Part shown: positions 1 to 54,462 of the stretch, one piece after another
Numbering within the stretch: the first letter of the stretch is position 1
Layout: each line of letters opens with the position of its first letter
The notes under the pieces: generated by a model
Database searches by the model: none
The model's input: only the letters and a program-made list of their open reading frames with translations
What the model was told of the DNA's origin: nothing
NCBI GenBank assembly: GCA_011392765.1
Contig: WYCW01000004.1
Coordinates: forward strand, 573,846-637,845
Source: Candidatus Thiosymbion ectosymbiont of Catanema sp. Cochon2018
Lineage (GTDB): Bacteria; Pseudomonadota; Gammaproteobacteria; Chromatiales; Chromatiaceae
Reading direction: 5' to 3'
Length of the DNA: 64,000 nt
Program-made: the position numbers and the translations under genes

Positions 1-912
1 CTCGGTTGGCCATTCGCTCTGTTCAAGCTGGCGGCGGCCTTTGTGACGGGCATGATCGGCGGTGCCCTGGTCAACCGCTTCACCGCGCCCGATGCCGAAC
101 CTCGATCCGCGTCCGTTGCGACTGCCGCCGAGCCGGGCGCGGGGGGCATTCGGGGGGCCTTGCGCTACAGCCTGTTCGAGCTCTTGGCGGCGATCGACCT
201 GTGGGTCTTGGCGGGGGTCCTGGTAGCGGCCTTGATCGCCACCTTTATCCCCCCCGACTATCTGGCTGGCCGGACCTGGGCCCAGGGCCTCGGCGGCATG
301 TTGCTCGTGTTGGCCATTTCGATTCCCCTCTATGTCTGTACCACCGGCTCGGTGCCGATTGCCGCCTCCCTCATCGCGGCAGGCATGCCGGCGGGTACGG
401 CCCTGGTCTTTCTGATGGCCGGACCGGCCACCAATGTGGCGACGCTCGGGGCCGTTTATCGGGTGCTGGGGACCCGGGTCCTGGCGATCTACCTGGGAAC
501 CGTGATCCTGATGAGCATCCTGCTGGGGCTCGGCTTCGATTGGTTACTCCAAGGGGTCCAAGTCGAAGAAGGATCTCACACCCACGGCATCGATTGGATC
601 GCGATCGGTTCCGCCCTGCTTCTGAGTGGGCTGCTTGCCTATCTGTTGGGGCTTCGTCTCAAGGCGAGGATCCGGGGGTGGTGCGACCCGGCACCGGGAG
701 GGGACTTTATGCTCAAGGTAGAAGGCATGTCTTGCGGCCACTGCGTGGCCAGCGTGAAAAAATCCTTAGAAAGGGTTGCGACCGTCAGCGAGGCCACACC
801 GGACCTGGCTTCCGGGCTGGTACGAGTGCGTGGTGACCACTTGGACGTCACTGACTTGATCCGGGCCGTGGAAAAGGCCGGATTTCGCGCCTCGGAGCCC
901 CGGAGAGCCTAA
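1..912 (+). CDS. Multi-pass permease (DUF318 / SO_0444-like putative metal transporter) fused to a C-terminal heavy-metal-associated (HMA) domain; 5' end cut by window edge
   Basis: Frame is open from nt 1 (ORF track 43..912). Translation is hydrophobic and multi-helix. The last ~65 aa (FMLKVEGMSCGHCVASVKKSLE...) carry the MxCxxC HMA metal-binding motif. Confidence 0.75.
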   Translation, partial: LGWPFALFKLAAAFVTGMIGGALVNRFTAPDAEPRSASVATAAEPGAGGIRGALRYSLFELLAAIDLWVLAGVLVAALIATFIPPDYLAGRTWAQGLGGMLLVLAISIPLYVCTTGSVPIAASLIAAGMPAGTALVFLMAGPATNVATLGAVYRVLGTRVLAIYLGTVILMSILLGLGFDWLLQGVQVEEGSHTHGIDWIAIGSALLLSGLLAYLLGLRLKARIRGWCDPAPGGDFMLKVEGMSCGHCVASVKKSLERVATVSEATPDLASGLVRVRGDHLDVTDLIRAVEKAGFRASEPRRA

Positions 913-976
913 CCTCTACTCCCCTATCCGTCGCCTAAAGGCGAGGGGTTTACAGATCCCCTCTTGGGGACTCTTA

Positions 977-1123
977 AGAGGCTGTCTAAAAACGAACACA
1001 TTGATTTTAAATCGGTAGGTTGGGGGGCAAGGAACGACCCCCGGCGTTGGTTATTGCCGGGTTTTGGCCGTCCCTGGCCGCAACCCAGCCTACGGCCTAC
1101 GGTCCCTTTTTAGACAGTCTCTA
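977..1123. mobile_element. MITE-like element, family A (terminal inverted repeats AGRGGCTGTCTAAAAA ... TTTTTAGACAGTCTCT), copy 1
   Basis: ~147 bp unit bounded by 16-nt inverted termini. A near-identical copy lies at 52288-52434, a variant-core copy at 40507-40651, a truncated inverted copy at 26202-26275 and a solo terminus at 15349-15366. Confidence 0.6.
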
Positions 1124-1129
1124 AACATC

Positions 1130-1399
1130 TCATTGCTTGATCTGTTCCCGGATGGTGCGTTCGTACTCGGGGAAGTAGCGTCCAATGACCGGTAGGTCAA
1201 ATTGGCCGAGGATACTGGTATTGGGTTCGCGCTCCAGGAGAAACTCAAAGGATTTGCGTACCAGTTCCTCCGGGGTGAGCTTGCCGAGCGTCAGCTTCCG
1301 ATGATAGTCGGGACTGACGGTCACCCTGTGGGTCGTGCGTGTGGACCCCGCAACTGTTACCTGAAATGTCGTCTGGTCGAGCGCTGAAACCTCGATCAT
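1130..1399 (-). CDS. Small conserved hypothetical protein (89 aa)
   Basis: Clean ORF with non-repetitive, balanced composition (MIEVSALDQTTFQVTVAGSTRTTHRVTVSPDYHRKLT...FEFLLEREP...). I recognise no catalytic motif. Confidence 0.55.
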   Translation of the reverse strand: MIEVSALDQTTFQVTVAGSTRTTHRVTVSPDYHRKLTLGKLTPEELVRKSFEFLLEREPNTSILGQFDLPVIGRYFPEYERTIREQIKQ

Positions 1400-1544
1400 C
1401 GTTTTCTCCTCAAAATTTCCGGGGATGGGTCCAGCATATCGAACATGAAACGCGATTCAAATCCCCTGTGAACGGGAGCAGCCTTGGATGGCAGGGCACT
1501 GAGAGGGGGTGCCGGGGCAAGCGCACAGACACCACCAGCTGAGC

Positions 1545-1995
1545 TCTAGGATCCTTGAGGGACCCAAATCTTTACCAATGAGTCAAGTTTGTGCCGTGCA
1601 CAAATCGGGATCGGGATCGGGATCGGGATCGAAATCGAGATTCCGATTGCGATACCGATTTCGATTTCGATTTCGACCTACCTTAGCTCTTCAATGGCTG
1701 GTTGGGCGTAGGAGATGGGGCCTTACGGGAGAGGGATTTTTTGGGGCCTCATGCCTCGTCGGTCTGGGGTAAAGCCTCGCTAGGATTCCTTGACGGACCC
1801 GCATCTTTACAAATGAGTCAAGTTCTGCGGGCGCAGGGAACAGGAACCACGAAAGGCACGAAAAACACGAAAGGATACGAATCCACACGAATGAGAGTTC
1901 GTGTCCTTTCGTGCTTTTCGTGGTTTTTTTAGTTCCCGTACAAAAATTCACGCCTCGTCGGTCTGAGGCAGAGCCTCGCTAGGATTCGGAAAAGC
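1545..1995. repeat. Intergenic repeat cluster: box2(rc), GATCGG/GATTTCG word hairpin (1604-1677), box1+box2(rc) (1745-1835), CACGAA word hairpin (1845-1926), box1(rc) (1950-1990)
   Basis: Direct reading. Arms such as ccacgaaaggcacgaaaaacacgaaagg / cctttcgtgcttttcgtgg are reverse complements. The box sequences recur elsewhere in the window. Confidence 0.85.
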
Positions 1996-2552
1996 GTTGG
2001 CGGTGAAAGGGGGGCTCGATCATCCCTCACATTCGTTCGTCATCGACAGGAAAGAGGCGAGTGAGTCGTATGCCGAGGCCGTGTTTTCGGGAGGGTTTGT
2101 ACAGGCCCACTCAGCCTGCATGGAAATCCGGTTGACGGGAAAGCCCGGATAAACTAGGGTTGCCTCAGATTTCAGCGCACAGGGTATCCAAGGTTCCGAA
2201 CCATTCACGGAAAGCAGTATATTCGCCATCCCGCTCCGGGTCCGTATCCGGGGTTTGCCTGTGGGCCCTGTTCGCTCAGTCCGTCCGCGCTCGTTCCGAC
2301 GCTTCCGCTAACGGCATTCCCCGTCGGTCCAATGGCGTTATCCGCGTCCGGCGGATAGACCTTCGCGGTAGAGACGTGCTTTCCGGATCGGATTCGAGGA
2401 TTCTCTAAGGATACCAAGTGCCGGAGGACCGCTGGCGTCGCAAGCGGTTGGCAGGATACGGTGGTACAAAGCCGTTCACTATTGCCTGACCTGTGCATTG
2501 GTCGGGCGACGGTGTCAGGTCGATCAATGCACAATTGGCACGAGAGAATGCG

Positions 2553-2828
2553 ATGCGGATCTACGCAGGAAACCTACCCTACAGCGTCACCGATGACGAG
2601 TTGCGGGAAAAATTCGCCGAATACGGCGAAGTGGCGGACGTACTGGTGGTCAAGGACCGGATATCCGGCCAGTCCAAGGGATTCGGCTTTGTGGACATGC
2701 CCAATGATTCCGAGGCCAACCAGGCCATCGAGGCACTGGACGATCAGCCTTTCACGTCCCATAGCGACTCCTCTGCAAAGCCCCGAAAGCTGAAAGTCAA
2801 CAAGGCCCGACCCAAGGCCAATACCTGA
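2553..2828 (+). CDS. RRM-type (RNP-1/RNP-2) RNA-binding protein
   Basis: MRIYAGNLPYSV (RNP-2) and KGFGFVDM (RNP-1) motifs. I prefer the ATG at 2553, preceded by gagaga, over the longer ORF start at 2493. Confidence 0.85.
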   Translation: MRIYAGNLPYSVTDDELREKFAEYGEVADVLVVKDRISGQSKGFGFVDMPNDSEANQAIEALDDQPFTSHSDSSAKPRKLKVNKARPKANT

Positions 2829-2853
2829 AACGCCGGTGGCGGCGGATGCATCG

Positions 2854-2890
2854 GTGTGCCGTCCCGCGGGGACTGCACACCTTTGTTCGT
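2854..2890 (+). terminator. Possible intrinsic terminator between convergent RRM gene and ubiD
   Basis: GC-rich stem gtgtgccgtccc / ggggactgcacac with one mismatch, followed by ctttgtt. The T-tract is weak. Confidence 0.3.
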
Positions 2891-2956
2891 CTGCCACGGT
2901 CCGGGAAGGCAAATCGAAGTCGAGTAGCCCCGGTTGGCGAGGTGCCGGGGGCGAGA

Positions 2957-4423
2957 TCAATCGATCCCGAGGCTGCTCCAGCGTGCGTCCACCCGGTGCT
3001 TGATGTGTTCGTCCATACGGATGGGTCGGCCCCACTCTCGTTGGGTCTCCCCACGCCACTTGTTGGTGGCGTCGAAGCCGATCTTGGAGCCGAGTCCCGA
3101 CACCGGAGAGGCGAAGTCCAGGTAGTCGATCGGCGTGCGCTCCACGATCACCGTGTCCCGCGCCGGGTCCATGCGCGTGGTCATGGCCCAAATGACGTCC
3201 TTCCAGTCCCTGGCGTTCACGTCTTCGTCCACGACGATCACGAACTTGGTATACATGAACTGGCGCAGGAACGACCAGACGCCCAGCATCACGCGCTTGG
3301 CGTGCCCTGGGTATTGTTTCCTCATGCTGACCACCGCCAACCGGTAGGAGCAGCCTTCCGGCGGCAGGTAGAAGTCGAGTATCTCCGGAAACTGTTTTTG
3401 CAGGATGGGGACGAAGACCTCGTTGAGCGCCACACCCAGGATAGCCGGCTCGTCCGGCGGCCGGCCCGTGTAGGTACTGTGGTAGATGGGATCACGGCGC
3501 TGACTGATGCGTTCGATGGTGAAGACGGGGAAGCTTTCGACCTCATTGTAATAGCCGGTGTGATCGCCGAAGGGACCCTCGGCAGCCGTGTCCTCGGGAT
3601 AGATGTGGCCTTCGAGCACCAGCTCGGCGTTCGCGGGCACCTGCAGCTCGTTGCCGATACCCTCGGTAACCTCCGTGCGGCTGTCCCGCAGCAGACCGGC
3701 GAAGGCGTACTCGGACAATCCGTCGGGTATCGGGGTGACGGCGGCAAGTATGGTGGCCGGGTCCGCTCCCAAGGCGACGGACAGGGGAAAGGGTTCATCC
3801 GGGTGTTGCAGACGCCACTCCCGAAAGTCCAGGGCACCGCCACGATGGGCCAGCCAGCGCATGATGACCCGATTAGTGCCCAACACCTGCATGCGATAAA
3901 TGCCTAAATTCTGGCGCGGCTTGTCCGGTCCCCGGGTCACGACCAGTCCCCAGGTGATGAGGGGCCCCGCATCCCCCGGCCAGCAGGTCTGGATGGGTAA
4001 TCGGCCCAGATCGACCCCCGTTCCTTCGTGCACGACCTCCCGACAGGCCGGACTACCGATCCGTTTGGGCGCCATGTCGAGCACCTTTTTGAAGATCGGG
4101 AGCTTCCGCCAGGTATCCTTCATCCCCTGGGGCGGCTCCGGCTCCTTGAGGAAGGCCAGCGTCTTGCCGACCTCCCGCAGGGCACCGACGGACTCCTCCC
4201 CCATCCCCAGTGCCACCCGCTTGGTGGTACCGAAGAGATTACCCAGGAGCGGAATCCGGGATCCCTTCGGCCGCTCGAACAACAGGGCGGGTCCCCCCGC
4301 ACGCAAGGTACGGTCACAGATCTCGGTGATCTCGAGATAGGGATCGACCTCGACGGAGACGCGCTTGAGCTCGCCCCGCTGCTCGAGCTGGGCGATGAAA
4401 TCTCTCAGGTCTTTGTAGTGCAT
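2957..4423 (-). CDS. ubiD: UbiD-family decarboxylase (4-hydroxy-3-polyprenylbenzoate decarboxylase)
   Basis: 488 aa. The N-terminus [22 protein letters not shown]...[12 protein letters not shown] and overall length are typical of UbiD. Confidence 0.9.
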
Positions 4424-4630
4424 TGGAATTGTGAGAACCGCAGTTGGGTAGTGTCGTAACTCTGTTGTTTCCGAGATGTAAGGTATTGATTAGCATGTCT
4501 ATTTGAACCCCGAGAAACAAAATTAGAACACTACCCCGCAGTTGTAGGCGTAGACCGACTCCCAGCCGAGCTGCTGCTCCGGATGCTCGGCCGTGGTCCG
4601 CTGGACGAGGGTGTCTTCGGTATAGGCCAA

Positions 4631-5878
4631 TCAAACATCCTCCCAAAGACCGGCTATGGGCACGGCGTACCGATTTTTGCCGAAGGGGACGACGGCGTCT
4701 CCGTCATACAGTACCACCCCGGCCGCGAAACGCCGCCCCACCGCGTCCGCGAGTCTCCGCAGCCCCTTGAAGTCGTCCGAGGTCACTGTCGAGGCTGCCT
4801 TGACCTCGACCCCCGCCAGTTTGCCGACCGCCTCCAGCACCATGTCCACCTCGATTTGGTCCTTGTCGCGGAAATGACTGAAGGACAAGGCTTCTTCCTG
4901 CCAGGTGGCCTGCCGCCGCAGCTCCTGGTAGATGAAGGTTTCCAGCACCTGCCCGAACAGGGCGCGGTCGTCCCATAAAGTCGAGGCGTTCAGGCCGAGA
5001 AGAGCACATACCAGCCCGGTATCGCCCAGATGCAGCTTGGGCGTTTTGATCAGGCGTTTCAGCCGGCTACTGTGCCAGGGCGGCAGTTCATCCAGCAGGA
5101 AGATCCGCGACAACAGCGTGATGTACTCGCGAATGGTCGGGCGGCTCACCTGAAAGGGCGCGGCCAGATTGGACACATTCAACAGCCGAGCTGTCTGACC
5201 GGCGGCCAGTGCCAGCAGGCGCGGCAGGGCATCCGGCAGGCTGATGTGGGTAAGATCGCGAACATCGCGCTGAACCAGGGTATCGGCATAGTCCCTGTAC
5301 CAGGCCGTTCGTCGCCGCACCGTGGCTCGCCTCAGCGCCGCCGGAAACCCGCCCGCCGTCACGCGCTCCGCCAGCAACCGGCCCAGCCGCCTCCCGACGA
5401 TACCCGCCTTGAATCCCCCTCCAAACAATGTCGGCAGGAAACCGGTCGATCCCCCTGCAATCTCCGCCTGGGCCATCGGATGCAGGCGCAGGATCTCCAT
5501 GCGGCCGGCCAGCGAATCGGCAAGCCTCGGAACGAGCAGCACATGGGCCGAGCCGGTCAGGATAAAACGCCCGGCTTCCCGCCGGGCATCCACCGCGGCC
5601 TTCAACGACGTGAACAATTCCGGGACCCGCTGCACTTCATCCAGGATCACCCGCTCCGGGAGATCGGCGACATATCCCACCGGATCCGCCTGCGCCGCGG
5701 CCCGCTGCACGTCATCGTCAAAGCTGAGATAGGCATACCCCTCCGCAGCGCCCACCTGCCGGGCCAGCGTCGTCTTGCCGCTCTGTCGCGGCCCATGAAT
5801 CAGCACCACGGGCGAATCCGCCAATGCCTCCATTACCCGCGGCCGGAGGTATCTGGGGTAGAGATCGGCTTCCTGCAT
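4631..5878 (-). CDS. AAA+ ATPase with DUF4143-type C-terminal region
   Basis: Walker A GPRQSGKTT and a Walker B-like VILDEVQ. At 415 aa the architecture is typical of the stand-alone 'ATP-binding protein, DUF4143' family. Confidence 0.8.
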   Translation of the reverse strand: MQEADLYPRYLRPRVMEALADSPVVLIHGPRQSGKTTLARQVGAAEGYAYLSFDDDVQRAAAQADPVGYVADLPERVILDEVQRVPELFTSLKAAVDARREAGRFILTGSAHVLLVPRLADSLAGRMEILRLHPMAQAEIAGGSTGFLPTLFGGGFKAGIVGRRLGRLLAERVTAGGFPAALRRATVRRRTAWYRDYADTLVQRDVRDLTHISLPDALPRLLALAAGQTARLLNVSNLAAPFQVSRPTIREYITLLSRIFLLDELPPWHSSRLKRLIKTPKLHLGDTGLVCALLGLNASTLWDDRALFGQVLETFIYQELRRQATWQEEALSFSHFRDKDQIEVDMVLEAVGKLAGVEVKAASTVTSDDFKGLRRLADAVGRRFAAGVVLYDGDAVVPFGKNRYAVPIAGLWEDV

Positions 5879-5902
5879 AGCGTCTCATTGTAACTCCGGC
5901 GC

Positions 5903-5962
5903 CGTCCAATTGAAAGTTTTGAGACGTCCAATTGAAAGTTTGTAGCCGTCCAATTGCAAATT
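5903..5962. promoter_or_regulatory. Three phased direct repeats CGTCCAATTG(A/C)AA(G/A)TT, 22 bp apart, immediately upstream of the ATPase start codon
   Basis: Copies start at 5903, 5925 and 5947. The last copy ends ~25 nt from the ATG at 5878 on the minus strand. Confidence 0.5.
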
Positions 5963-5991
5963 TGGCCCCGTCTGATAGAAAAGCTACAAAC

Positions 5992-6064
5992 GAAGTGTGA
6001 AGTGTGAAGTGTGAAGTGTGAAGTGTGAAGTGTGAAGTGTGAAGTGTGAAGTGTGAAGTGTGAA
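5992..6064. repeat. Perfect heptanucleotide tandem repeat (GAAGTGT)n, ~10 copies
   Basis: Direct reading. It generates the artefactual ORF 5833..6147 (HFTLHTS repeats). Confidence 0.95.
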
Positions 6065-6275
6065 ATCGAAAGACAGTTAGCCGTTTGCGTGAAGTTTTTG
6101 AAAGCTAGACATGCCGGGTTACGCCGCATTCGACCTTGCCGGCACATATCAACCTTGCGGCACGCGCCTAACCCAGCCTACCGACTGTGAAAGAATTTAC
6201 CGGGAAACGAAGAACCACGAATGGACACGAATGAACACGAATATTGTCTGCTCCCACGGGTGCGGAAGATGCTCA

Positions 6276-6479
6276 TCATTCATCCCTCTGCCCTAGTGGA
6301 ACGCCAGCGATGCCGGAGGTCAGCCGGAGCGGCTTGTTAGGCACTTTGTTTGCGATATGTGCAAATACATTGATACGGTTCTCGAGGTATTTTTGTTCTT
6401 CGGCCCATATCATGCCGTCTGTTTCCGCAGAAATACGATCACGGATGCTTCGCATCAACTTCACGGCTTCAATCTTCAT
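6276..6479 (-). CDS. Small protein translationally overlapping the PIN gene (possible antitoxin/partner)
   Basis: 67 aa, overlapping the PIN stop by 11 nt. The N-terminus MKIEAVKLMRSIRDRISAETDGM resembles small partner proteins I recall next to PIN/nucleotidyltransferase toxins. That resemblance is from recollection only. Confidence 0.45.
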   Translation of the reverse strand: MKIEAVKLMRSIRDRISAETDGMIWAEEQKYLENRINVFAHIANKVPNKPLRLTSGIAGVPLGQRDE

Positions 6480-6930
6480 ATCGCAATACCTCTACAGGAG
6501 TTCGAATCTCCAGGAGCGGATATCCAAGGCGGAGGTTTACGGAATTATATCCATGAATTCGCTCCAGGTTGACTATGTGTTTGAAGTTCCAGCTTACTAA
6601 AACATTTGCACGATGAATTGTGGCAGTTGCTATGTGCTGCGCATCTACGCGATTCTTTTTTGTTACAACGCCCTCTTGTAAATACTCGTCGGCCAACTCA
6701 CTCGCGTCTTGCGAAAACTCGATGTACTCGATGAATTCGGATGGAACGGTCTCGACTATTTTTTGAACTGAGACTGGCGCAGATTCAAGTTCAGCCAGGG
6801 TCAAATCGGACAAAACGATCATTGACGAACCAGATCGGAAACTTTCAAAAAGCGCAATAGAACCCTCGGAAAACTCCGTATCGAGACACCCACCGATTAC
6901 TGATGTGTCCGTATAAATTCTTGTCTTCAT
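6469..6930 (-). CDS. PIN-domain protein (VapC-like putative toxin)
   Basis: 153 aa. It has the N-terminal acidic motif IYTDTSVIGG and a distal DAQHIATA motif, in a locally AT-rich patch. Confidence 0.7.
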   Translation of the reverse strand: MKTRIYTDTSVIGGCLDTEFSEGSIALFESFRSGSSMIVLSDLTLAELESAPVSVQKIVETVPSEFIEYIEFSQDASELADEYLQEGVVTKKNRVDAQHIATATIHRANVLVSWNFKHIVNLERIHGYNSVNLRLGYPLLEIRTPVEVLRYED

Positions 6931-7054: not shown

Positions 7055-7800
7055 TATTCTAGCGAGGCTTCGCCTCAGACCAACGAGACGTGAATTTTTG
7101 TACGGAAATCAAAAAACCACGAAAAGCACGAAAGGACACGAACCCTGAGGTATCCCCACATTATTGCTAGCTAAAACAACAAGTTCGCGTAGGTTGGGCA
7201 AAGCCGTAGGATGCGGTGAGCGCGGCAGGTCATTCAGGATGGCACCACAAGGAGGCGCGAACCGCATCAATGGACGCCCCGCCAGCGGCGAATCGCATCT
7301 TTGGATGGCCCGTGCCCAACACCCTGCTGGCCTGCGGAATTTAAACCACAGAGGACACCGAGAACACAGAGAAGAGAGTAGGCCAACTCTGTGTTCTCGG
7401 TGTCCTCTGTGGTTCAAAATCAAGCGGTGCACACAAAACTTGACCCATTTGTAAAGATTCGGGTCCCTCAAGGATCCTAGCGAGGCTTCGCCTCAGACCG
7501 ACGAGGCGTGAATTCTTTTTAACCACAGAGGACACAGAGCACACAGAGATGGAAATGCGATCAGCCCAAGTAGAATACGGTTGATTGATCAATTGCAATG
7601 TCCGCCGTCCGGTCGAGGGTGTTGAACGCGATCGCGTCTGATTCTCTGTGTACTCGGTGTTCTCTGTGGTGAATAAAGAGAGGTCGCAACGACTCGTACC
7701 CTGCGCGTGAGGCTTCGCCTTCAGACTGGTAAGGCATGAATTTTTTGTGCCGTGCAAAAACTCGACTCGTTTGTAAAGTTGCGGGTCCCTCAAGGATCCT
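7055..7800. repeat. Intergenic repeat cluster: box1, half CACGAA array, GTAGGTTGGGCAAAG REP (7189-7322), CACAGAG hairpin (7343-7413), box2+box1 (7427-7514), split CACAGAG hairpin (7521-7671), box1-like+box2 (7690-7800)
   Basis: Direct reading of inverted and direct repeats. All ORFs predicted here translate repeat words such as NHRGHREHR. Confidence 0.85.
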
Positions 7801-10276: not shown

Positions 10277-10341
10277 TCCGGAACTCCACTTTTATCTGTA
10301 AAAACCTGCGTAATCTGTGGATTCAAAACGCGAATGCGATC

Positions 10342-10648
10342 CAAGTTCCTAGCGAGGCGTTGCCTCAGACCGACGAGGCGTGATCATCGCTCTCTCGCGA
10401 TCGAAAACGGAACCGTGATCGTAGTCGTAATCGGAGACGCAAGGCAAAGCGGGCATGGAAAACCTGATGTCTACGGGTTTCGACCCGGCACCTGGCCGGG
10501 ACCTCTGGATACCACGATCCGCGAAAGTATTCTGTCTCTCCTACGGCGGCTTCGATCACGATTACGATCACGATCACGACAACGAGAGAGGTTAGACGTT
10601 TGCGAAATTTGACTCATTTGCACAAAATCTGGTCATTCAAGGAATCCT
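10342..10648. repeat. box1 - GATCG-word inverted arms (10391-10434 / 10553-10590) around a ~118 bp loop - box2
   Basis: ctagcgaggcgttgcctcagaccgacgaggcgtga at the left, tttgactcatttgcacaaaatctggtcattcaaggaatccta at the right, with complementary arms between them. Confidence 0.75.
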
Positions 10649-12574: not shown

Positions 12575-12762
12575 CAGCCAAGTCCATCACCATCCGAAAG
12601 GAAAGGTGCGTGTCCTTGTGTGCCTCTTGTGTGCCTTTCGTGGTTCCAAGCCATCCAATGATGCGGTTCGCAGCCTGCATGCGTCCCTGCACAGCAGGCG
12701 CTCACCGCATCCTACGGTAGCGAATTGAAACCGCCGATGGGCGGGTCTCCCCGGTGCGGATC

Positions 12763-16936: not shown

Positions 16937-17148
16937 CGCTCTAGGATTCCTTGACGGACCCGCATCTTTACAACTGAGTCAAGTTCTGCGGGCGCGGAGA
17001 ACAGGGTCCACGAAAGACACGAAAAGCACGAAGGGATACGAATTCATACGAATGAGGGTTCGTGTCTTTTCGTGCTTTTCGTAGACTTCTGGTTTCCGTA
17101 CAAAAATTCACGCCTCGTCGGTCTGAGGCAAAGCCTCCTAGAGACTGT
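16937..17148. repeat. box2(rc) - CACGAA word hairpin (17007-17083) - box1(rc)
   Basis: Same modules as 1745-1990, read directly. Confidence 0.85.
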
Positions 17149-21133: not shown

Positions 21134-22022
21134 TTGGAGGTTCGCGGCGCGGACCTCACCGACCCGTCCACGCTGGTCGGCCGGCTCGCCGGGATCGAGT
21201 TTGTCTCCCACCTGGCGAGTTATGCGCCGGCGCCGCAAGAGATCGATGTCTACCAGGCGCCTGCCCATTGGCCTGTGACGGCGGAAGGTACCCGCAACCT
21301 CGTGGACGCGGCGCCGGCAGCCGGTGTTCGGCGGTCTGGTCTATCTGAGCAGCGTCAAGGTCATGGGGACAGCGATCGGTGCCGGCGGCGGACCAGTGGA
21401 CGAGGCAACGCCACCTGCGCCGGATACCCTGTACGGACACGCCAAACTGGCGGCGGAGCGCAGTGTCCTGGCGGCGGGCGAAGCGGGGGAGCTGCGGGTC
21501 TGTGTGTTACGCCCGCCGATGATCTATGGGATAACCGGAGCAGGCAACATCGCGCGTATGATCGACGCAGTGGCGCGGAATCGGTTCCCTCCCTGGCCGA
21601 AACTCGACCATCGGCGATCGTCCGTTCACGTGCTGGATCTTATCGCGGCCGCTTTTCTTGCGGCCACTCATCCACGGACAGGCGACCGCTCCTACCTGGT
21701 GACCGATGACCACGGCTATTCCACCCAGTGGCTGTATGAACGGATTCGAGTCGCCCTGGGCCGACCAGTGCCCGGATGGACAGTCCTCTACCGGGCCCTG
21801 GCGACCGCTGCTTATGGGGCCACCTGGTTGGAAAAATTATTTCGGCGGCGCATGTTCCTCAACCGCGAAGACTGGCGTAAGCTTACAGAGATCGCCTGGT
21901 TTTCCTCGGATTGGATCCGTACCGAACTGGGCTTTGAGCCGCACCACAGCCTGGAACAGGAAATACCTCGAATGGTCCGGGAATACCTGGATACCGCTCC
22001 TTCCGGAGACCGGCTTGATTAA
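21134..22022 (+). pseudogene. NAD-dependent epimerase/dehydratase lacking its N-terminal Rossmann GxxGxxG segment, with a +1 frameshift near 21337
   Basis: 21134 frame: VRGADLTDPSTLVGRLAGIEFVSHLAS...TAEGTRNLVDAAPAAGVRR. 21324 frame: LVYLSSVKVMG...DTLYGHAKLAAE (YxxxK). Removing one T in ggcggTctggtc restores GVRRLVYLSS. Confidence 0.75.
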
Positions 22023-22155
22023 CCACAGAGGCGCAGAGAACACAGAGAGTTTTTAATGAGACCTTAGCTGGATTGCAAGGATTGCTCGCTGCGCGCTGAT
22101 CGCAGAAACCTCCTTGTGATCGCTTTCTCTGTATCCTCAGCGCCTCTGCGGTTCA
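22021..22155. repeat. Split CACAGAG-word hairpin (arms 22021-22050 / 22120-22155) around a ~70 bp loop
   Basis: aaccacagaggcgcagagaacacagagag versus ctttctctgtatcctcagcgcctctgcggtt. Confidence 0.75.
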
Positions 22156-22215
22156 TCCTTCTTACGGATTCGGGTTTGCCGCTTACTCCATTTGCGTCCA
22201 AGGGGGAAGGTAGCT

Positions 22216-25973: not shown

Positions 25974-26275
25974 CGGGGCTTTGCCTCAGACCGACGAGGC
26001 GTGACCAACCGCACCGAAGAACCACGGATAGACACGGATAAACACGGATCACAATCCGTGTTTATCCGTGTCTGCCTCCGTGGTTCAAAGGATTTGCGAT
26101 TCCTGCCCAACAAGAGGCAGAACTATTTTTGTGCAGCGCACAAACTTGACTCATTTGTGAAGATGCAGGTCCCTCAAGGAATCCTAGCGAGGCTTTGCCT
26201 CAGAGACTGTCTAAAAAGGGATCGTAGGCCGTAGGCTGGGTTGCGGCCAGGGACGGCCAAAACCCAGCAATAACC
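25970..26275. repeat. Composite: box1 (25970-26004) - CACGGAT word hairpin (26018-26086) - box2+partial box1 (26130-26203) - truncated inverted MITE-A fragment (26202-26275)
   Basis: Direct reading. The TAG stop of the DctM-type gene lies inside box1 (ggCTAGcgg). Confidence 0.85.
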
Positions 26276-26591: not shown

Positions 26592-26707
26592 AAGCAATAC
26601 GATTTTTGTCAACAGCGCACTTGAATAATCAGTGGGTTAGAGTCGCCTGATCGGTGAAAACGCCTATTTTTCAAGGTGCCAGGGACAGTGGCAACCGCCG
26701 TGGGCTA

Positions 26708-26790
26708 CATGGACTCAGTGGACCACGTGGACTGGGGGTCGCTGTATGCCCCCGAGTCCATGCAGTCCATACTGTCCATGTTGTCTATTG
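26708..26790. repeat. TGGAC-word hairpin
   Basis: catggactcagtggaccacgtggac ... gtccatgcagtccatactgtccatg. Confidence 0.8.
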
Positions 26791-28967: not shown

Positions 28968-29104
28968 CAATGCCATTAAGTTAGCTGTTGGCCACTTAGA
29001 GAAAACTACGAATCACGCGAATTTTCGCGAATCGATTCGCGAGGATTCGCGTGATTCGTAGTTTCTTCTCTTACTTTGCCGACCGGTGACGCTTAACTTA
29101 TTGG
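28968..29104. mobile_element. MITE-like element family B (termini CAATGCCATTAAGTTA; palindromic ACGAATCACGCGAAT core), copy 1, right end degenerate
   Basis: Reverse complement of the copies at 30055-30207 and 42798-42949. Confidence 0.7.
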
Positions 29105-30066: not shown

Positions 30067-30207
30067 GTTAAGCGTTATCGGTCGGCAAACTAAGAGAAGA
30101 AACTACGAATCACGCGAATCCTCGCGAATCGATTCGCGGAAATTCGCGTGATTCGTAGTTTTCTCTTCCGCATCGGTAAGTGGCCAACAGCTAACTTAAG
30201 GGCATTG
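30055..30207. mobile_element. MITE-like element family B, copy 2
   Basis: caatgctattaagtta ... ctaacttaagggcattg termini, with the central palindrome acgaatcacgcgaatcctcgcgaatcgattcgcggaaattcgcgtgattcgt. Confidence 0.8.
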
Positions 30208-30927: not shown

Positions 30928-31162
30928 TGGTTACTCCGGTGGTGCAGGGAACGACATCCTTTATCCGCAGATTGCGCGGATTTTCGCAGATTCTCTCGTT
31001 TTTCATCGGTGAGAATCTGCGGACCGAAGAACGCGACCGAGGTTCCTGATGCCGGGACAACGGTGGGCACAGCCTCCCCCCTACAAAGCCATGGTTTCGG
31101 GAAGATTTATACACGCCCGCCCTGCTCGGGACCGGTCTTCGGGGGAATCCGGCCGGATACCC

Positions 31163-31362: not shown

Positions 31363-31431
31363 AGAACCACGGATAGACACGGATAAACACGGATTGTGAT
31401 CTGTGTTTATCCGTGTCTATCCGTGGTTCTT
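31363..31431. repeat. CACGGAT-word hairpin (second copy)
   Basis: gaaccacggatagacacggataaacacggat tgtgat ctgtgtttatccgtgtctatccgtggttc. Confidence 0.9.
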
Positions 31432-33510: not shown

Positions 33511-33712
33511 GTCTCACCGGGGCGGTCTGCCTGACACCGGATCAGGCCGGCGGTGCATTGGTTTTCGATTCAGTCCGATTGTCTCCCTTTATCGATTGGT
33601 AGTCGATTCTTGCCGCACCGTACGGGAGCCGGCGCACGCATATTCGCTCTCCATGGACGCTACGGCTCGACTCGACTCGAGTTTCGGCGCGATGCTAATA
33701 GGAAACCTTTTT

Positions 33713-33785
33713 AATCCGCAGATTACGCAGATTTCCACAGATTATTTCGTTCTTAATCTGCGGAAATCTGCGCAATCTGTGGATA
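33713..33785. repeat. CGCAGATT-word hairpin
   Basis: aatccgcagattacgcagatttccacagatt ... aatctgcggaaatctgcgcaatctgtggat. Confidence 0.85.
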
Positions 33786-33832
33786 AAGAAAGTCCGGTCC
33801 TCCAAACTGCGCCAAATCATTCAGGATTGCTT

Positions 33833-37468: not shown

Positions 37469-37502
37469 CCAAGGCAGCCACCATAGATGACAGGGCAGCC
37501 GC

Positions 37503-37623
37503 CGTGGACAACATGGACTGAATGGACCCAATGGACTGGGGGCAGCTCAGCGCGTCGCAGGTTAGTGGGGCGTTACCAGTTGTCCCCCGTCCACTTTGTC
37601 CATGCCGTCCATGCTGTCCATGG
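37503..37623. repeat. TGGAC-word inverted arms around a ~55 bp loop
   Basis: gtggacaacatggactgaatggacccaatggac ... gtccactttgtccatgccgtccatgctgtccat. It ends 30 nt before the Hsp70-like start codon. Confidence 0.85.
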
Positions 37624-37652
37624 CGGTTGCCCGAAACCTGTCGGAACCCTCA

Positions 37653-40508: not shown

Positions 40509-40651
40509 GAGGCTGTCTAAAAACTAACACATTGATTTAAAAATGAAAAATTCTTCGTGTCTTCGTGACTTTGTGTGAGAAATGAAGAACATCACACAAA
40601 GGCACAAAGCTACAAAGGGGTACTAAGAGACTGTCTTTTTAGACAGGCTCT
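40507..40651. mobile_element. MITE-A variant: same termini, different core carrying a TTCGTG/CACAAAG word hairpin
   Basis: gagaggctgtctaaaaactaacacattgattt ... tttttagacaggctc. The left terminus abuts the Hsp70-like TGA. Confidence 0.65.
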
Positions 40652-40741: not shown

Positions 40742-40801
40742 ATCCGCAGATTACGCAGATAAAAAACACAACAATCTGCGAGAATCTGCGTAATCTGCGG
40801 A
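40742..40801. repeat. CGCAGATT-word hairpin
   Basis: atccgcagattacgcagat ... atctgcgagaatctgcgtaatctgcggac. Confidence 0.85.
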
Positions 40802-40881
40802 CAGAAAAGACAATGTGACCTTTTGCGACCGATTTGCGTTAATTGGTGTTTATTGGCGGATAAATCCCGTACCGGAAAGCG

Positions 40882-42797: not shown

Positions 42798-42949
42798 CAA
42801 TGCCATTAAGTTAAGCGTTGCCAGTCGGCAAACCAGAGGAAAAACTACGAATCACGCGAATCCTCGCGAATCGATTCGCGGAAATTCGCGTGATTCGTAG
42901 TTTTCTCTTCCGCATCGGTCAGCAACCAGCGACTAACTTAATGGCATTG
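42798..42949. mobile_element. MITE-like element family B, copy 3
   Basis: caatgccattaagtta ... taacttaatggcattg, nearly identical to 30055-30207. Confidence 0.85.
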
Positions 42950-43072
42950 GGTTAAACGCGCCGTGCGATGCGGGCCTGGGCAACCGCGAGGCTGAACGCG
43001 CCGTAACTCGACATCCAAGGATAACCCGCAGCGTCCTGTGCCCGGTACGGGGGTATCGCAAAAGTCCTTTCG

Positions 43073-43142
43073 AACCACAGAGGACACAGAGAACATAGAG
43101 AAAGGCACAGACCAATTCTCTGCGTTCTCTGTGTCCTCTGTG
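43073..43142. repeat. CACAGAG-word hairpin
   Basis: aaccacagaggacacagagaacatagag ... ctctgcgttctctgtgtcctctgtga. Confidence 0.85.
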
Positions 43143-43165
43143 ATTTGAACTTCACAGACTGATAG

Positions 43166-47784: not shown

Positions 47785-47905
47785 GTGGACACAATGGACA
47801 GCATGGACGACTTGGACAATATGGACATGCCGGATTCGACGATGAGGTCGAGGGGTTGGATCTGTGTACCCCGGCTGCCGAGAGGTTCACTGCGGAGGTC
47901 GGAGT

Positions 47906-48610
47906 ATGAGTGGACGGAATGGACAGGATGGACAAAGTGGACGGGGAATGAGAGGTAAACCGACCGAGGGACTGATTCCCAGGCACGGCGGCTACCGCAA
48001 GCTGAAGAGCTTTCAAATCGCGCAATTGGTCTATGACGTGACGGTGCGGTTTTGTGACCGCTATATCAATAAACGCAGCCGTACCCACGACCAGATGGTG
48101 CAGGCGGCACGCTCGGGGGTACAAAACATCGCGGAGGGCAGCAAGGCCTCGGGTACATCCAAAAAGACCGAACTGAAGCTGACCAATGTGGCGCGGGCAA
48201 GCCTCGAAGAATTACGCCTGGATTATGAGGATTTTCTCCGACAACGGTGCTTGCCGCAGTGGGAGCGAGAGGACCCGCGCTGGGCGGAGCTCATCAATCG
48301 GCGGTGTTCTACTGCCGATGAGGTGGCACAGTGGATACGAGAGGTCCATGATGGAAATGGACAAAGTGGACAATATGGACAAGGTGGACAAAATGGACCG
48401 TCCATGAAGTCCACGCTGTCCATTCCGTCCACTCAGTCCACCAAGTCCACTTATCCCGAAATAGCCGCCAATGCCGCACTGGTCCTGATCGCCGTGGCGT
48501 GCAGCCTGCTCGACCGTCAGCTTGCCGCTCAGGCCGACGCCTTCGAGGCAGAAGGTGGGTTTACCGAACGCCTTTATAAAAGACGGACCCAGGCGCGGAG
48601 GAGACAATGA
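47906..48610 (+). CDS. Four-helix-bundle protein (23S rRNA intervening-sequence protein family) with C-terminal 'suffix' region; carries an in-frame TGGAC-word hairpin insertion
   Basis: YRKLKSFQIAQLVYDVTVRFCDRYI...THDQMVQAARSGVQNIAEGS is typical of the family. The start is ATG 47906 or 47948. The insertion lies at 48350-48450. Confidence 0.75.
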   Translation: MSGRNGQDGQSGRGMRGKPTEGLIPRHGGYRKLKSFQIAQLVYDVTVRFCDRYINKRSRTHDQMVQAARSGVQNIAEGSKASGTSKKTELKLTNVARASLEELRLDYEDFLRQRCLPQWEREDPRWAELINRRCSTADEVAQWIREVHDGNGQSGQYGQGGQNGPSMKSTLSIPSTQSTKSTYPEIAANAALVLIAVACSLLDRQLAAQADAFEAEGGFTERLYKRRTQARRRQ

Positions 48611-54146: not shown

Positions 54147-54245
54147 CCTGGTAGGGTGGACTGTGTCCACCGCCTCGGCATTGAGAACACGGTCGTGTTT
54201 TGAATCCGCGATTACGCAAATTCTCGCAGATGACTAAGAAACGAA

Positions 54246-54353
54246 ATATACTGCCGCATGGCACAATTCGAGCTTTTGAATTTCCCCCTCACCCCTGCCC
54301 TCTCCCGGAGGGAGAGGGAGTGAAATGCGCAGATTGTACCGTGTGGCAGTATT
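54246..54353. repeat. Palindromic element family C, compact copy, itself flanked by CGCAGATT-word arms (54195-54240 / 54355-54385)
   Basis: atatactgccgcatggcacaattcgagc...ccctcacccctgccctctcccggagggagagggagtgaa...gtaccgtgtggcagtatt. Confidence 0.8.
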
Positions 54354-54462
54354 TGTGAAAACCTGCGTAATCTGCGGATACCTGCCGATGTTTGCCGCGC
54401 GATGCGGCATCGATTCCGCGATACCCGGTTGTCGAGAGAGGGTGAGCAGATCTCCCCGCCTG

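Follow-up and report, generated by a model that had tools for sequence, protein, structure and literature searches.

What kind of element is an inverted repeat whose two arms are themselves tandem arrays of short words, and are the many such hairpins found along a single 64-kb stretch of a repeat-rich Chromatiaceae genome (hereafter, the window) related to one another? The question arises from a hairpin at 1845-1926, flagged in a preliminary description of the window that distinguished eight word families and left their function open. The arms of this hairpin, both 42 nt long, span 1840-1881 and 1898-1939, with 81% complementarity and a 16-nt gap between them. The left arm consists of AACCAC followed by about five words and includes a 9-nt array of CACGAAAGG (x3.0 at 1848-1874, TRF), while the right arm includes a 9-nt array of TTCGTGCTT (x3.2 at 1898-1927, TRF) and ends in GTGGTT followed by T7. 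With 15-nt flanks, the hairpin has a folding energy of -53.9 kcal/mol (RNAfold).

Tandem-word hairpins in the window

Hairpins with tandem-word arms are a real and non-random feature of the window. When ungapped arms of 20 nt or more are required, 26 hairpins are found, whereas 30 dinucleotide shuffles made block by block average 3.3. Both arms are periodic in 14 of these 26 hairpins (0.5 expected from the shuffles), 21 of them are intergenic in a window with 22% intergenic DNA, and arrays of at least three C[AG]C-N-[AG]A words with a period of 8-10 nt occur 20 times (0.16 in shuffles). Nearly all the sites in the preliminary description proved to be real, with coordinates that were exact or off by a few nucleotides (Table 1). 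The sites at 7108 and 12598, described as half copies, are indeed single arrays lacking a partner arm, as are those at 6207, 47785 and 47910; the arrays at 54195 and 54355 do pair as the two arms of one hairpin, separated by a 114-nt insert; and the replacement of the loop by 70-120 bp was borne out at 7516-7676, 22017-22157, 10395-10579 and 54195-54385. Covariation between arms can be seen both inside the window, as in CACCGAG/CTCGGTG at 7343 versus CACAGAG/CTCTGTG at 43073, and across 51 elements from many organisms.

The classes dismissed in the preliminary description remain dismissed. A CRISPR array was rejected: the words abut and the arrays form inverted pairs, there are no regular-length unique spacers, and a scan of 40 window ORFs detected no cas genes. 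Classical single-consensus REPs exist apart from the word hairpins, as GTAG-headed doublets at 16280-16351 and 43326-43381, and the argument against plain microsatellite slippage is upheld. Plain microsatellites are also present in the window, such as (GAAGTGT)10 at 5992-6064 (TRF). Copies of a constant linker repeat, M1-M2, give seven M2-hairpin-M1 units (Table 1); M1 was considered as a sigma-70 promoter and dropped, the spacing of its hexamers being unsuitable by eye, and is kept here as a linker repeat.

Table 1. Word hairpins, single arrays and linker repeats of the 64-kb window, with their scores against covariance model R1.
Position	Strand	Feature	R1 (bits)	Remarks
1604..1677	.	Hexamer-arm hairpin, (ATCGGG)n / (GATTTC)n	16	Partly G-T wobble pairing; score not above REP baseline
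1840..1939	.	Word hairpin, CACGAAAGG/CACGAAAAA type	40 (match at 1863, E 3e-10)	Flagged site; inverted-repeat, TRF and folding evidence
6207..6243	+	Solo array, canonical 10-nt words AACCACGAATGGACACGAATGAACACGAAT		No partner arm; word type identical to arrays of Halofilum (L009) and Verrucomicrobia (L086)
7108..7142	+	Solo array AACCACGAAAAGCACGAAAGGACACGAA		
7337..7421	.	Word hairpin, CACAGAGGA type	46 (match at 7344)	Arms 94% complementary; -61.7 kcal/mol
7420..7517	+	Constant linker M1-M2 (AAACTTGAC.CATTTGTAAAGAT.CGGGTCCCTCAAGGATCCTAGCGAGGCTT.GCCTCAGACCGACGAGGCGTGA)		Between two word hairpins
7516..7676	.	CACAGAGGA hairpin		67-nt insert between arms
10395..10579	.	Hexamer-word (CGTGAT/CGTAAT) inverted arrays, start GAACCGTGATCG		Arrays ~100 nt apart; affiliation to word-hairpin superfamily uncertain
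12598..12650	-	Solo array, end ...TTCGTGGTT		Starts 24 nt past stop of 11429-12574 gene
17007..17083	.	Word hairpin, CACGAAAG type	31 (match at 17024)	99 nt downstream of recC
22017..22157	.	CACAGAGGA/CGCAGAGAA inverted arrays		77-nt insert; left array overlaps stop of upstream ORF
26018..26086	.	Canonical 10-nt word hairpin, AACCACGGATAGACACGGATAAACACGGAT	66 (match at 26020, E 9e-19)	45 nt past dctM stop
26693..26790	.	TGGACnnnn hairpin		Pairing at TGGAC cores only; 75% complementary; left end AACCGCC; affiliation to superfamily uncertain
28998..29069	.	MITE-B core copy 1, perfect-centre palindrome AACTACGAATCACGCGAATTTTCGCGAATC/GATTCGCG...	52	
30095..30166	.	MITE-B core copy 2	48	
30963..31025	.	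Partial hairpin, CGCAGATT type	20	Local match
31363..31430	.	Second copy of 26018 hairpin	79 (match at 31365, E 4e-23)	Loop inverted
33705..33793	.	Hairpin, CGCAGATTA type, AATCCGCAGATTACGCAGATTTCCACAGATTA	46 (match at 33714)	
37493..37632	.	TGGACnnnn hairpin, 4 words per arm		-101 kcal/mol; right end GGCGGTT
40553..40617	.	8-nt word hairpin, TTCGTGTC / CACAAAGG	No match	
40742..40801	.	Hairpin, CGCAGATTA type	27	Score at structure-only baseline
40833..40858	-	Solo array CGCCAATAAACACCAATTAACGCAAA		Absent from the preliminary list
42841..42904	.	MITE-B core copy 3	48	Within larger inverted repeat 42797-42820 / 42927-42950
43069..43149	.	CACAGAGGA hairpin	32	Homologue of 7337-7421; changes compensatory
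47785..47945	+	Two solo TGGAC arrays (47785-47830, 47910-47945)		Each after one copy of duplicated S-subunit gene 3' end
48350..48452	.	TGGACnnnn hairpin, 5 words per arm		74% complementary; inter-core spacers mismatched
54195..54385	.	CGC-GATTA-type hairpin, arms 54195-54240 and 54355-54385		Insert bears its own terminal inverted repeats ATACTGCCGCATGGCACAAT
1552-1589, 1749-1824, 1948-1987, 7056-7099, 7742-7802, 10346-10389, 10605-10649, 16948-16985, 17108-17147, 25967-26010, 26126-26186		Further M1-M2 copies		

A shared word core and shared outer ends

The view that the architecture is filled by many unrelated word sequences does not hold. In five of the eight families (CACGAAAGG, CACAGAGGA, CACGGATAGA, CGCAGATTA and TTCGTGTC/CACAAAGG) the words have a common core, C[A/G]C-N-[A/G]-A, and CGCGAAT words are also seen in the MITE-B core, a counterpart of which lies at 9037-9098 in the relative L002. 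Several families also have common outer ends, AACC[A/G]C...G[C/T]GGTT. The CACGAAAGG, CACAGAGGA and CACGGATAGA families start with AACCAC and end with GTGGTT, the CGCAGATTA family starts with AATCCGC, and CACAAAGG has no such end. By site, the outer motif is found at 1845, 7343, 7521, 22021, 26018, 31363 and 43073, as well as on the solo arrays at 6207 and 7108; variants of it occur at 33713 (AATCCGC), in MITE-B (AACTAC), at 26693 (AACCGCC) and at 37620 (GGCGGTT), and it is absent at 1604, 40553 and 48350.

A covariance model built from elements of other organisms only (R1) recovers much of this grouping. Six of the eight families score 27-79 bits, and five of them (31-79 bits) clearly exceed the unrelated GTAG REP hairpins, which set a baseline of 14-26 bits; ten individual hairpins of the window score between 31 and 79 bits (Table 1). 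R1 misses the TGGAC, hexamer and 8-nt families. Runs of three or more tandem C[A/G]C-N-[A/G]A words are lacking in the TGGAC and hexamer families, and no TGGAC arrays were found in 2.3 Mb of foreign loci; the TGGAC and hexamer (GATCGG) families can be counted only as candidate members of the superfamily.

The word sequence itself matters, beyond the pairing of the arms. Among the 51 elements examined for covariation, a set pre-selected for complementarity, core word positions show 0-2 cross-arm mismatches, and word position 4 and the linkers are mismatched in 6-20. Furthermore, a T-C mismatch recurs systematically in each word of several foreign elements, and the TGGAC hairpins of the window pair at their cores only.

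Distribution and association with GxxExxY genes

The pattern AACCACRRA-N3-4-CACRRA-N3-4-CACRRA, searched in one genome per species, yields at least 120 matches in many phyla, spanning the Verrucomicrobiota, Planctomycetota, Acidobacteriota, Chloroflexota, Proteobacteria and Bacteroidota, as well as one archaeon; Labilibaculum euxinus, Flavobacterium foetidum and Wenzhouxiangella sp. are among the isolates that carry it. Among the matches listed, which comprise 156 arrays, an inverted partner lies within 250 nt in 75 cases and at 251-700 nt in nine. Arrays 400-600 nt apart enclose a single gene of ~110-140 aa encoding a GxxExxY protein (TIGR04256, PF13366, PD-(D/E)XK nuclease). The arms enclose such an ORF in L053, L118 and L125 (TIGR04256, E 4e-42 to 8e-35; PF13366, E 3e-41 to 2e-32), and three further GxxExxY genes adjoin arrays in L085, L093 and L103.

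The association of inverted word arrays with GxxExxY genes is specific, as revealed by a sample of 80 GxxExxY loci taken by protein pattern and irrespective of words. An inverted repeat connects the flanks of the gene in 45 of the 59 loci with enough flanking sequence; of 159 control ORFs taken at these loci, one has such a repeat. The repeats at the 45 loci are nearly all AACC[AG]C followed by three 10-nt words. The 84 elements analyzed fall into two size classes (50-220 nt and 400-600 nt), the larger of which holds GxxExxY; other cargo was considered and discarded, the few "large" elements without GxxExxY being neighboring independent hairpins. This link across many phyla was beyond the reach of the preliminary description, and no account of it was found in the searchable literature. 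The presence of the arrays on either side of GxxExxY genes provides a model of the element that can be tested, where the function had been left unassigned.

An alternative is that word hairpins originated independently at many sites by replication slippage and template switching, with no common ancestry. The variable linkers between words, the hexamer and TGGAC variants and the occurrence of plain microsatellites ((GAAGTGT)10 at 5992-6064) would all suit such a process, but a common terminal motif and word core in many phyla, the specific tie to a single gene family, and scores of up to 79 bits against a foreign-built model would not. For the C[AG]C families this origin is already contradicted, and as a general account it is very improbable.

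GxxExxY proteins form a large family. About 7,900 relatives were scored among at most ~8,000 candidates, and at least 600 stretches of metagenome contigs match the protein pattern, 534 of the 600 listed encoding a relative. In a six-protein alignment, the nuclease motifs D, (D/E)xK and QxxxY are invariant; a PDB sequence search with a GxxExxY protein returned no homologue, and an AlphaFold model from a shallow alignment was unusable (pLDDT 43). Protein similarity tracks word type weakly (0.53 vs. 0.51; p 0.03-0.07), and specific co-evolution of protein and words is hence unsupported. One GxxExxY gene, for which a position upstream of valS was confirmed in two loci only (L148, L152), has ~120 homologues at 71-100% identity, a range that would fit vertical inheritance.

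With regard to location, at 34 of 44 loci the upstream neighbor has the same orientation as the GxxExxY element. The median gap between the end of the neighbor's ORF and the start of the protein match is 74 nt, array included, and most solo elements of the window lie 1-100 nt past a stop codon. These positions, the conservation of word cores across phyla, the T7 tract after 1845-1926 and the precedent of REP elements, which stabilize mRNA 3' ends, would be in line with arrays acting as host signals, either as binding arrays for a host protein or as RNA hairpins that stabilize or terminate 3' ends, with GxxExxY genes borrowing the signal for their own regulation. Several results argue against this explanation, which we judge improbable. 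A generic terminator scan of positions 1-20000 yielded 17 hits where 18.7 were expected, and the hairpins did not stand out in it; the flanks are T-rich before and A-rich after the hairpin, the wrong order for a terminator; and folding energies display no strand preference. Furthermore, the hairpins are absent from close relatives at the one comparable orthologous region (prlC), solo half-arrays and direct arrays (e.g., L109) are unable to form hairpins, and Rfam yields chance matches to miRNA precursors only.

A proposed nuclease-carrying element and its probable solo derivatives

The reading that we favor, with a probability of roughly 0.6, is that most hairpins of the window are solo derivatives, similar to MITEs or REPINs, of a nuclease-carrying element of ~430-600 bp. 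The full element opens with the outer motif AACC[A/G]C, followed by roughly three words of 8-10 nt in tandem (canonical form C[A/G]C-N-[G/A]-A-T-[G/A]-[G/A]-A), and finishes with the same words inverted and a final G[C/T]GGTT. Its ORF of ~110-140 aa fills the entire interval between the arrays, with an ATG often located within a word and a stop codon abutting the far array, and encodes a GxxExxY protein, predicted to be a small nuclease of the PD-(D/E)XK superfamily. With words about one helical turn apart, the arrays may serve as multi-site platforms that bind the nuclease, which would make them act as ends akin to terminal inverted repeats. Once the ORF is lost, the remaining hairpin could still be copied in trans, as with MITEs and insertion sequences or REPINs and RAYT genes. 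In this repeat-rich Chromatiaceae genome, which comes closest to Candidatus Thiosymbion, these solo elements would have multiplied, drifted in concert into the different word variants and become interleaved with the second repeat, M1-M2, in BIME-like mosaics, and their insertion, presumably without target-site duplication, would be tolerated just past stop codons. Both mobility and the role of the nuclease are inferred here. The stronger proposal that a GxxExxY gene and its two inverted three-word arrays make up an autonomous mobile element of ~430-600 bp, whose nuclease binds the phased words and moves or homes it with no target-site duplication, and whose non-autonomous offspring are the hairpins, is more tentative, and we rate it at below even odds. 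To our knowledge, no insertion sequence is that small.

The outer AAC and GTT triplets of the hairpins, together with flanks that are T-rich before and A-rich after, resemble the R''/R' cores of integron attC sites (RYYYAAC/GTTRRRY), which invites a reading as attC-like targets of an integron integrase. We consider this reading very unlikely: no integrase (intI) was detected among the 40 window ORFs scanned, the neighbors are housekeeping genes in mixed orientation, C and A are equally frequent after GTT, and tandem words are not a known feature of attC sites. Moreover, the ORF of the full element sits between the arms, whereas in attC it lies beside a contiguous site.

The prlC surroundings are the sole orthologous intergenic region available for comparison. 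The window hairpins are missing there from relatives whose PrlC is 83-90% identical, and the spacer between prlC and the AAA-ATPase gene measures 2367 nt in the window versus 330 nt in L002. In the orthologous regions L001-L006 and L207 the hairpins are absent, and divergence or rearrangement is too great for empty sites to be defined. Copies in the window are many and lie in unrelated flanks. No pair of empty and filled sites was found, and transposition is therefore itself inferred. No target-site duplication was detected either: in 82 elements, direct matches of 2-5 nt shared by the two flanks occur at chance level, and the flanks extend the palindrome instead. Its absence fits some mobile classes, although the usual footprint is gone.

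The lack of target-site duplications also suits a more passive process, in which the hairpins are relics of full GxxExxY elements that lost their ORF by deletion between arrays, with no copying of solos in trans. The bimodal element sizes, with none in between, agree with it, as does the set of many close homologues of a single GxxExxY gene, which would fit vertical inheritance. The absence of a GxxExxY gene from the 64-kb window (E<1e-3, with no remnant at E<20) and from ~90 kb of relatives counts against the favored reading, and a window without a nuclease gene is compatible with relics. Against relics stand the more than 20 solos with no gene in 64 kb, and none of the hairpin loops shows traces of an ORF. 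Near-identical solos also sit in unrelated flanks (the copies at 26018 and 31363, in opposite orientation, show 91% identity across the 56 nt compared, and the three MITE-B cores 91%), and solos are nested in larger repeated units, as in the 157-nt segment at 16941-17097 that holds the 17007 hairpin and is 88% identical to 1780-1936. We thus regard relics as unlikely next to solo derivatives copied in trans.

If correct, the autonomous-element proposal would define a new pan-bacterial class of selfish DNA, parallel but unrelated to REPIN/RAYT, and provide the first function for the GxxExxY/PDDEXK_3 family. Should the link between arrays and genes hold, a very abundant family of "hypothetical" proteins would gain a DNA partner and a testable role, an origin would be available for intergenic hairpins seen from the Verrucomicrobiota to the Proteobacteria, symbiont genomes would have some of their repeat load explained, and a route would be available to a new mechanism of DNA recognition or mobility. 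In practical terms, word hairpins disrupt assemblies, are a source of short spurious ORFs (starting with MDTD… or MNTN…) and mimic miRNA precursors in RNA scans.

Comparison with known systems

As claimed in the preliminary description, no element class of this kind was found in the searchable literature, including that on Thiosymbion repeats, bacterial foldback, tandem and inverted repeats, GxxExxY/PDDEXK_3 and new REPIN-like families. An intrinsic terminator was rejected: a T run follows 1845-1926 only, the T-rich side precedes the hairpins, and there is no strand asymmetry. Terminator and promoter scans showed no enrichment, strand asymmetry of folding, a sign of RNA function, had no consistent bias, and no tRNA or tmRNA was found; Rfam produced no matches at gathering thresholds and, with E up to 1, chance miRNA-precursor models only at the hairpins. 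Partial resemblances to DnaA boxes, CsrA GGA sites, Mu ends and Correia elements were considered and dropped.

The intervening sequences of 23S rRNA carry a small ORF in stem-forming inverted repeats, with ORF-less hairpin forms also known, and they lie inside rRNA helices and encode a four-helix-bundle protein. Word elements resemble them in the enclosure of a small ORF by inverted repeats, and differ in location and protein. In Foldback (FB) transposons, known from Drosophila and further eukaryotes (see PMC3573991), the inverted repeats are likewise made of tandem short subrepeats and many copies are repeats alone that fold into hairpins. FB elements are eukaryotic and kilobase-scale, with other subrepeats and a different transposase, and homology is not implied. 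The TAACTGA heptamers of the Beggiatoaceae, Cyanobacteria and Bacteroidetes are intergenic direct tandem words whose scattered occurrence among phyla points to horizontal spread and protein binding (PMC4679880). Unlike word hairpins, these arrays are direct and lie just upstream of start codons, with only one inverted case and no linked nuclease gene reported (PMC4679880).

Closer parallels are found with MITEs and their parent insertion sequences, which share with word elements terminal inverted repeats with a deleted interior, bimodal sizes with or without the gene, lineage-specific bursts and nesting in other repeats. Word elements differ from classical MITEs in the lack of target-site duplication, and from MITE parents in that no DDE, HUH or serine/tyrosine recombinase is involved and the parent measures only ~430-600 bp. 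The REP/REPIN-RAYT system is similar in featuring short intergenic palindromes, many per genome and without target-site duplication, a single associated gene flanked by inverted copies of the same sequences, and gene-less copies that far exceed the gene copies; the mosaic clusters with linker motifs recall the BIMEs of E. coli. Word hairpins are headed by AACC[A/G]C instead of the GTAG/CGTC of REPs, with which they coexist in the window, and their arms span 25-55 nt and three to five tandem words, whereas a REP is a single imperfect palindrome of 20-40 nt. No Y1 transposase (RAYT) was identified among the 40 window ORFs scanned, and the gene of the word arrays encodes a PD-(D/E)XK nuclease of ~110-140 aa in place of the HUH/Y1 transposase of RAYT. 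If the link between arrays and genes holds, word elements would represent a nuclease-based counterpart of the REPIN/RAYT and MITE/insertion sequence pairs.

Word hairpins and their shared core

The flagged word hairpin, an inverted repeat in which each arm is a tandem array of short words, has arms of 42 nt that are 81% complementary and lie 16 nt apart. Both arms are 9-nt arrays (CACGAAAGG x3.0 and TTCGTGCTT x3.2 in Tandem Repeats Finder), and the folding energy, short flanks included, is -53.9 kcal/mol. The remaining sites of the preliminary description were confirmed, with coordinates good to a few nucleotides, and its reports of inserts that sometimes replace the loop and of covariation between arms also held, the differences between the hairpins at 7343 and 43073 being compensatory changes. 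Five arrays are single and partnerless, while those at 54195 and 54355 pair as arms of a single hairpin, separated by a 114-nt insert with terminal inverted repeats of its own. Hairpin counts far exceed chance expectation: the window contains 26 whose ungapped arms reach 20 nt or more, versus 3.3 in block-wise dinucleotide shuffles, and 14 that are periodic in both arms, versus 0.5. Intergenic DNA makes up 22% of the window and contains 21 of the 26. The finding is genuine, and broader than initially supposed.

The earlier view that the words are unrelated between families was not borne out, a core, C[A/G]C-N-[A/G]A, being common to five of them (CACGAAAGG, CACAGAGGA, CACGGATAGA, CGCAGATTA and TTCGTGTC/CACAAAGG). 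The first three start with AACCAC and end with GTGGTT; the CGCAGATTA family starts with AATCCGC, and CACAAAGG has no comparable end. The core of MITE-B, a window repeat with a word palindrome at its core, reads AACTACGAATCACGCGAATCC… and has CGCGAAT words in common with these families. Arrays of at least three core words with a period of 8-10 nt number 20 in a pattern search of the window, versus 0.16 in shuffles, and the word pattern also located an array missing from the preliminary list. Judged by their words, the families of the window mostly form one superfamily.

Coordinates of repeats and genes in the window, with hairpin scores under the covariance model R1
Feature	Position	R1 (bits)	Remark
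Flagged hairpin, arms	1840-1881 / 1898-1939		
Word hairpin	31365	79	
Word hairpin	26020	66	
MITE-B cores (three)	28998, 30095, 42841	48-52	
Word hairpin	7344	46	
Word hairpin	33714	46	
Word hairpin	1863	40	
Word hairpin	43073	32	
Word hairpin	17024	31	
Word hairpin	40742	27	
Unrelated GTAG REP hairpins	43327, 16281	14-26	structure-only baseline
Partnerless arrays	6207, 7108, 12598, 47785, 47910		
Loops replaced by inserts	7516-7676, 22017-22157, 10395-10579		
Array found by word pattern	40833-40858		
M2-hairpin-M1 regions	1500-2000, 7050-7800, 10346-10650, 16948-17147, 25967-26186		
M1 / M2 modules	1552-1589, 1749-1824, 1948-1987, 7056-7099, 7420-7517, 7742-7802, 10346-10389, 10605-10649, 16948-16985, 17108-17147, 25967-26010, 26126-26186		M1 AAACTTGACTCATTTGTAAAGATGCGGGTCCCTCAAGGAATCCTAG; M2 CTAGCGAGGCTTTGCCTCAGACCGACGAGGCGTGA
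TATACTGCCRCAYGGCACAAT element	33833-34045, 54247-54352		
TATACTGCCRCAYGGCACAAT 'end plus arm' fragment	10293-10322		
Larger MITE-B unit	42797-42950, 28996-29114, 30093-30211		
REP-like doublets	16280-16351, 43326-43381		GTAGCGCAGGCGTCCCGCCTGC … GCAGGCGAGACGCCTGCGCTAC
22-nt unit x3.3	5901-5972		
(GAAGTGT)x10.4	5992-6064		perfect microsatellite, after the 22-nt unit
Dispersed repeat	977-1122 / 52289-52434		146 nt, 95% identity; starts GAGGCTGTCTAAAAAC
GAGGCTGTCTAAAAAC, further occurrence	40502-40541		
Dispersed repeat	6102-6181 / 8170-8249		80 nt, 80% identity
Type I restriction-modification locus	43350-52175		
hsdM	43350-44948		
S subunit	45922-47784		fused to nucleotidyltransferase domain
S-subunit 3' end, duplicated	47734-47817, 47859-47942		TGGAC array after each copy
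hsdR, split	49580-50443; 50547-52175		N-terminal ORF; C-terminal ORF
Glycosyltransferase ORF	20464-20907		147 aa only
Epimerase ORF	21324-22022		
970-aa ORF	37596-40508		DnaK-related DUF3731, HSP70
In-frame repeat, 18 nt	37890-37940		GGGGCAGTGGAAAAAACG
In-frame repeat, 9 nt	40002-40030		AGTGGAAAA

Distribution and association with the GxxExxY gene

Scanned over one genome per species, the pattern AACCACRRA-N3-4-CACRRA-N3-4-CACRRA returned at least 120 matches, where about 70 are expected by chance in the whole collection under a uniform-composition estimate. Among the matches listed are Verrucomicrobiota, Planctomycetota, Acidobacteriota, Chloroflexota, Bacteroidota, Spirochaetes and candidate phyla, one Thermoplasmata genome and, within the Gammaproteobacteria, Halofilum, Wenzhouxiangella, Methylobacter and Competibacteraceae. 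Nearly all of these listed matches have further words or an inverted partner, the latter lying within 250 nt in 75 of 156 arrays and at 251-700 nt in 9. On contigs classed as viral in IMG/VR, the AACCAC pattern occurs at 120 loci or more (L208-L327), with rarer partners (37/159 arrays); some of these contigs (L224, L262, L277) have 4-5 arrays each, and may be phage or misassigned host DNA. At a locus from the genome scan (L109, 5416-5628), word triplets, each with a GTGGTT end, run head to tail with alternating ATTCGTG and TTTCGTG types and no inverted partners, which shows the array of three words to be an independent unit.

In three foreign loci (L053, L118, L125) the arrays lie 400-600 nt apart, and a single ORF of some 130 aa fills the space between them and encodes a GxxExxY protein (TIGR04256, E 4e-42 to 8e-35; Pfam PF13366, PDDEXK_3, E 3e-41 to 2e-32); three additional GxxExxY genes adjoin arrays (L085, L093, L103). 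As a sample independent of the words, and hence of word-search bias, 80 metagenome GxxExxY loci were chosen by protein pattern alone. At 45 of the 59 loci with sufficient flank, the 150-nt stretches on either side of the gene share an inverted repeat, and other ORFs of the same loci reached that score in 1 case out of 159. The flanking repeat nearly always consists of AACC[A/G]C and three words of 10 nt (e.g., AACCACGGATGGACACAGATGAACACGGAT … ATCCGTGTTCATCCGTGTCCATCCGTGGTT). The full element is tightly packed, with a start codon that frequently lies inside a word (CACAGATGAAC) and a stop codon that abuts the downstream array. Over all sequence examined, elements fall into two size classes, 50-220 nt and 400-600 nt, and the larger carries GxxExxY; the exceptions trace to artefacts of how the check set ORF boundaries, or to independent hairpins lying side by side. 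The upstream neighbour of GxxExxY elements is co-directional in 34 of 44 cases, with a median of 74 nt between the end of its ORF and the point where the protein match starts. Six aligned proteins all have the D, (D/E)xK and QxxxY residues, no relative of the protein was found in the PDB, and protein similarity correlates only weakly with word type.

In two loci (L148, L152) one GxxExxY element lies between an upstream gene and valS. The valS-side protein has about 120 homologues (P0121-P0240) with 71-100% identity, each on a few contigs at most and a few of them named as Verrucomicrobiota; so many close homologues would fit vertical inheritance. Two other organisms (L144, L158) have a GxxExxY element between the same neighbour pair, the upstream product ending …FTSDFDF, and their words differ (CACAGAT in one, CACGAAT in the other).

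Membership of the window hairpins and constraint on words

Within the 64-kb window no GxxExxY gene or remnant was found. The window hairpins were scored with R1, trained on 50 foreign elements only, and on these scores most of them belong to the array family that flanks GxxExxY. Three kinds of hairpin escaped R1: those of the TGGAC type, an 8-nt one at 40553 and a hexamer one at 1604; two TGGAC hairpins have AACCGCC/GGCGGTT ends, and 2.3 Mb of foreign loci contained no TGGAC arrays.

Over 51 elements, the two arms covary at C[A/G]C and [G/A]AT of the word core, with 0-2 mismatches, whereas word position 4 and the linkers are mismatched in 6-20 of the 51; these elements were pre-selected for complementarity, and the informative part is the contrast between positions. 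In four loci (L103, L129, L149, L156) left-arm CGCTAAT words face right-arm ATTCGCG words, so that each word carries an identical T-C mismatch and homogenisation of words is stronger within an arm than between the two. The TGGAC hairpins of the window pair at their cores only, and folding energies reveal no strand preference. Together with the existence of direct arrays, these observations favour phased, sequence-specific duplex-DNA sites over a purely structural RNA hairpin.

Mosaic organization and gene setting

Identity between the hairpins at 26018 and 31363, taken over 56 nt, is 91%; the loop is inverted and the flanks are unrelated. Window hairpins are absent from relatives with 83-90% identical PrlC, and the prlC/AAA-ATPase spacer measures 2367 nt in the window versus 330 nt in one relative (L002); no filled/empty site pair was found. 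Target-site duplications were not found either, the palindrome running instead 2-5 nt further outward. Solo hairpins, the gene-less form, lie in the window mostly 1-100 nt 3' of stop codons, by approximate gene calls. A fixed M2-hairpin-M1 frame surrounds seven hairpins, with M1-M2 linkers joining successive ones; it houses differing word types, which also occur frameless (31363, 43073). Ahead of M1 lies a small GC hairpin that covaries (GTGCnnnGCAC or CTGCGnnCGCAG). A small element with TATACTGCCRCAYGGCACAAT terminal inverted repeats has one copy in a word-hairpin loop and the other 48 nt from a word hairpin. The MITE-B palindrome lies centrally in a longer repeated unit (about 120-150 nt) that carries an outer inverted repeat of its own (CCAATGCCATTAAGTTAAGCGTTG / CAGCGACTAACTTAATGGCATTGG).

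The genes of the window are ordinary gammaproteobacterial chromosomal genes, including ubiD, oligopeptidase A (prlC), recC, TRAP transporters, a type I restriction-modification system, ppk2 and ETF/ETF-QO. For oligopeptidase A, identity is 84% to the protein of a Candidatus Thiosymbion ectosymbiont, 73-81% to the enzymes of further Chromatiaceae and as high as 90% to metagenome proteins. Among 40 window ORFs scanned there was no transposase, integrase, cas gene or Y1 transposase, and Rfam and tRNA scans of the window were empty save for chance miRNA-precursor matches to long hairpins. The REP-like doublets, with classical GTAG heads, are a separate palindromic family beside the word hairpins. 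The 22-nt repeat and the microsatellite both lie in the 2.4-kb repeat-filled AAA-ATPase gene/prlC spacer. The restriction-modification locus looks rearranged. The glycosyltransferase ORF and the epimerase ORF, which matches its Pfam profile from position 110 onward only, are probably gene fragments, consistent with an eroding symbiont-like genome. The 970-aa ORF, which contains two in-frame tandem repeats, probably has a later true start.

Comparison with known systems

Sequence membership, gene association, the two size classes and a lineage-specific abundance are established. Mechanistically, the word arrays may act as binding platforms of the GxxExxY nuclease, and solo hairpins would be non-autonomous derivatives of the full element. 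GxxExxY/PDDEXK_3 has been given as 'unknown' with multiple transfers (PMC3424549) and mentioned as a reverse-transcriptase neighbour (PMC8934634). Full-text searches, of incomplete coverage, found no published mention of repeats with GxxExxY or PDDEXK_3, of which an earlier description may exist, and no comparable bacterial elements. That the full element constitutes a new class of mobile DNA is a tentative reading, to which we give roughly one chance in three.

Identity with REP/RAYT was rejected on head motif and gene type, and identity with MITEs on the target duplication. In their working, REPIN/RAYT and MITE/IS pairs are nonetheless the closest to the word-hairpin/GxxExxY system; the M2-hairpin-M1 organization of the window is similar to the BIME mosaics of E. 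coli, and the word hairpin itself resembles a miniature foldback element.
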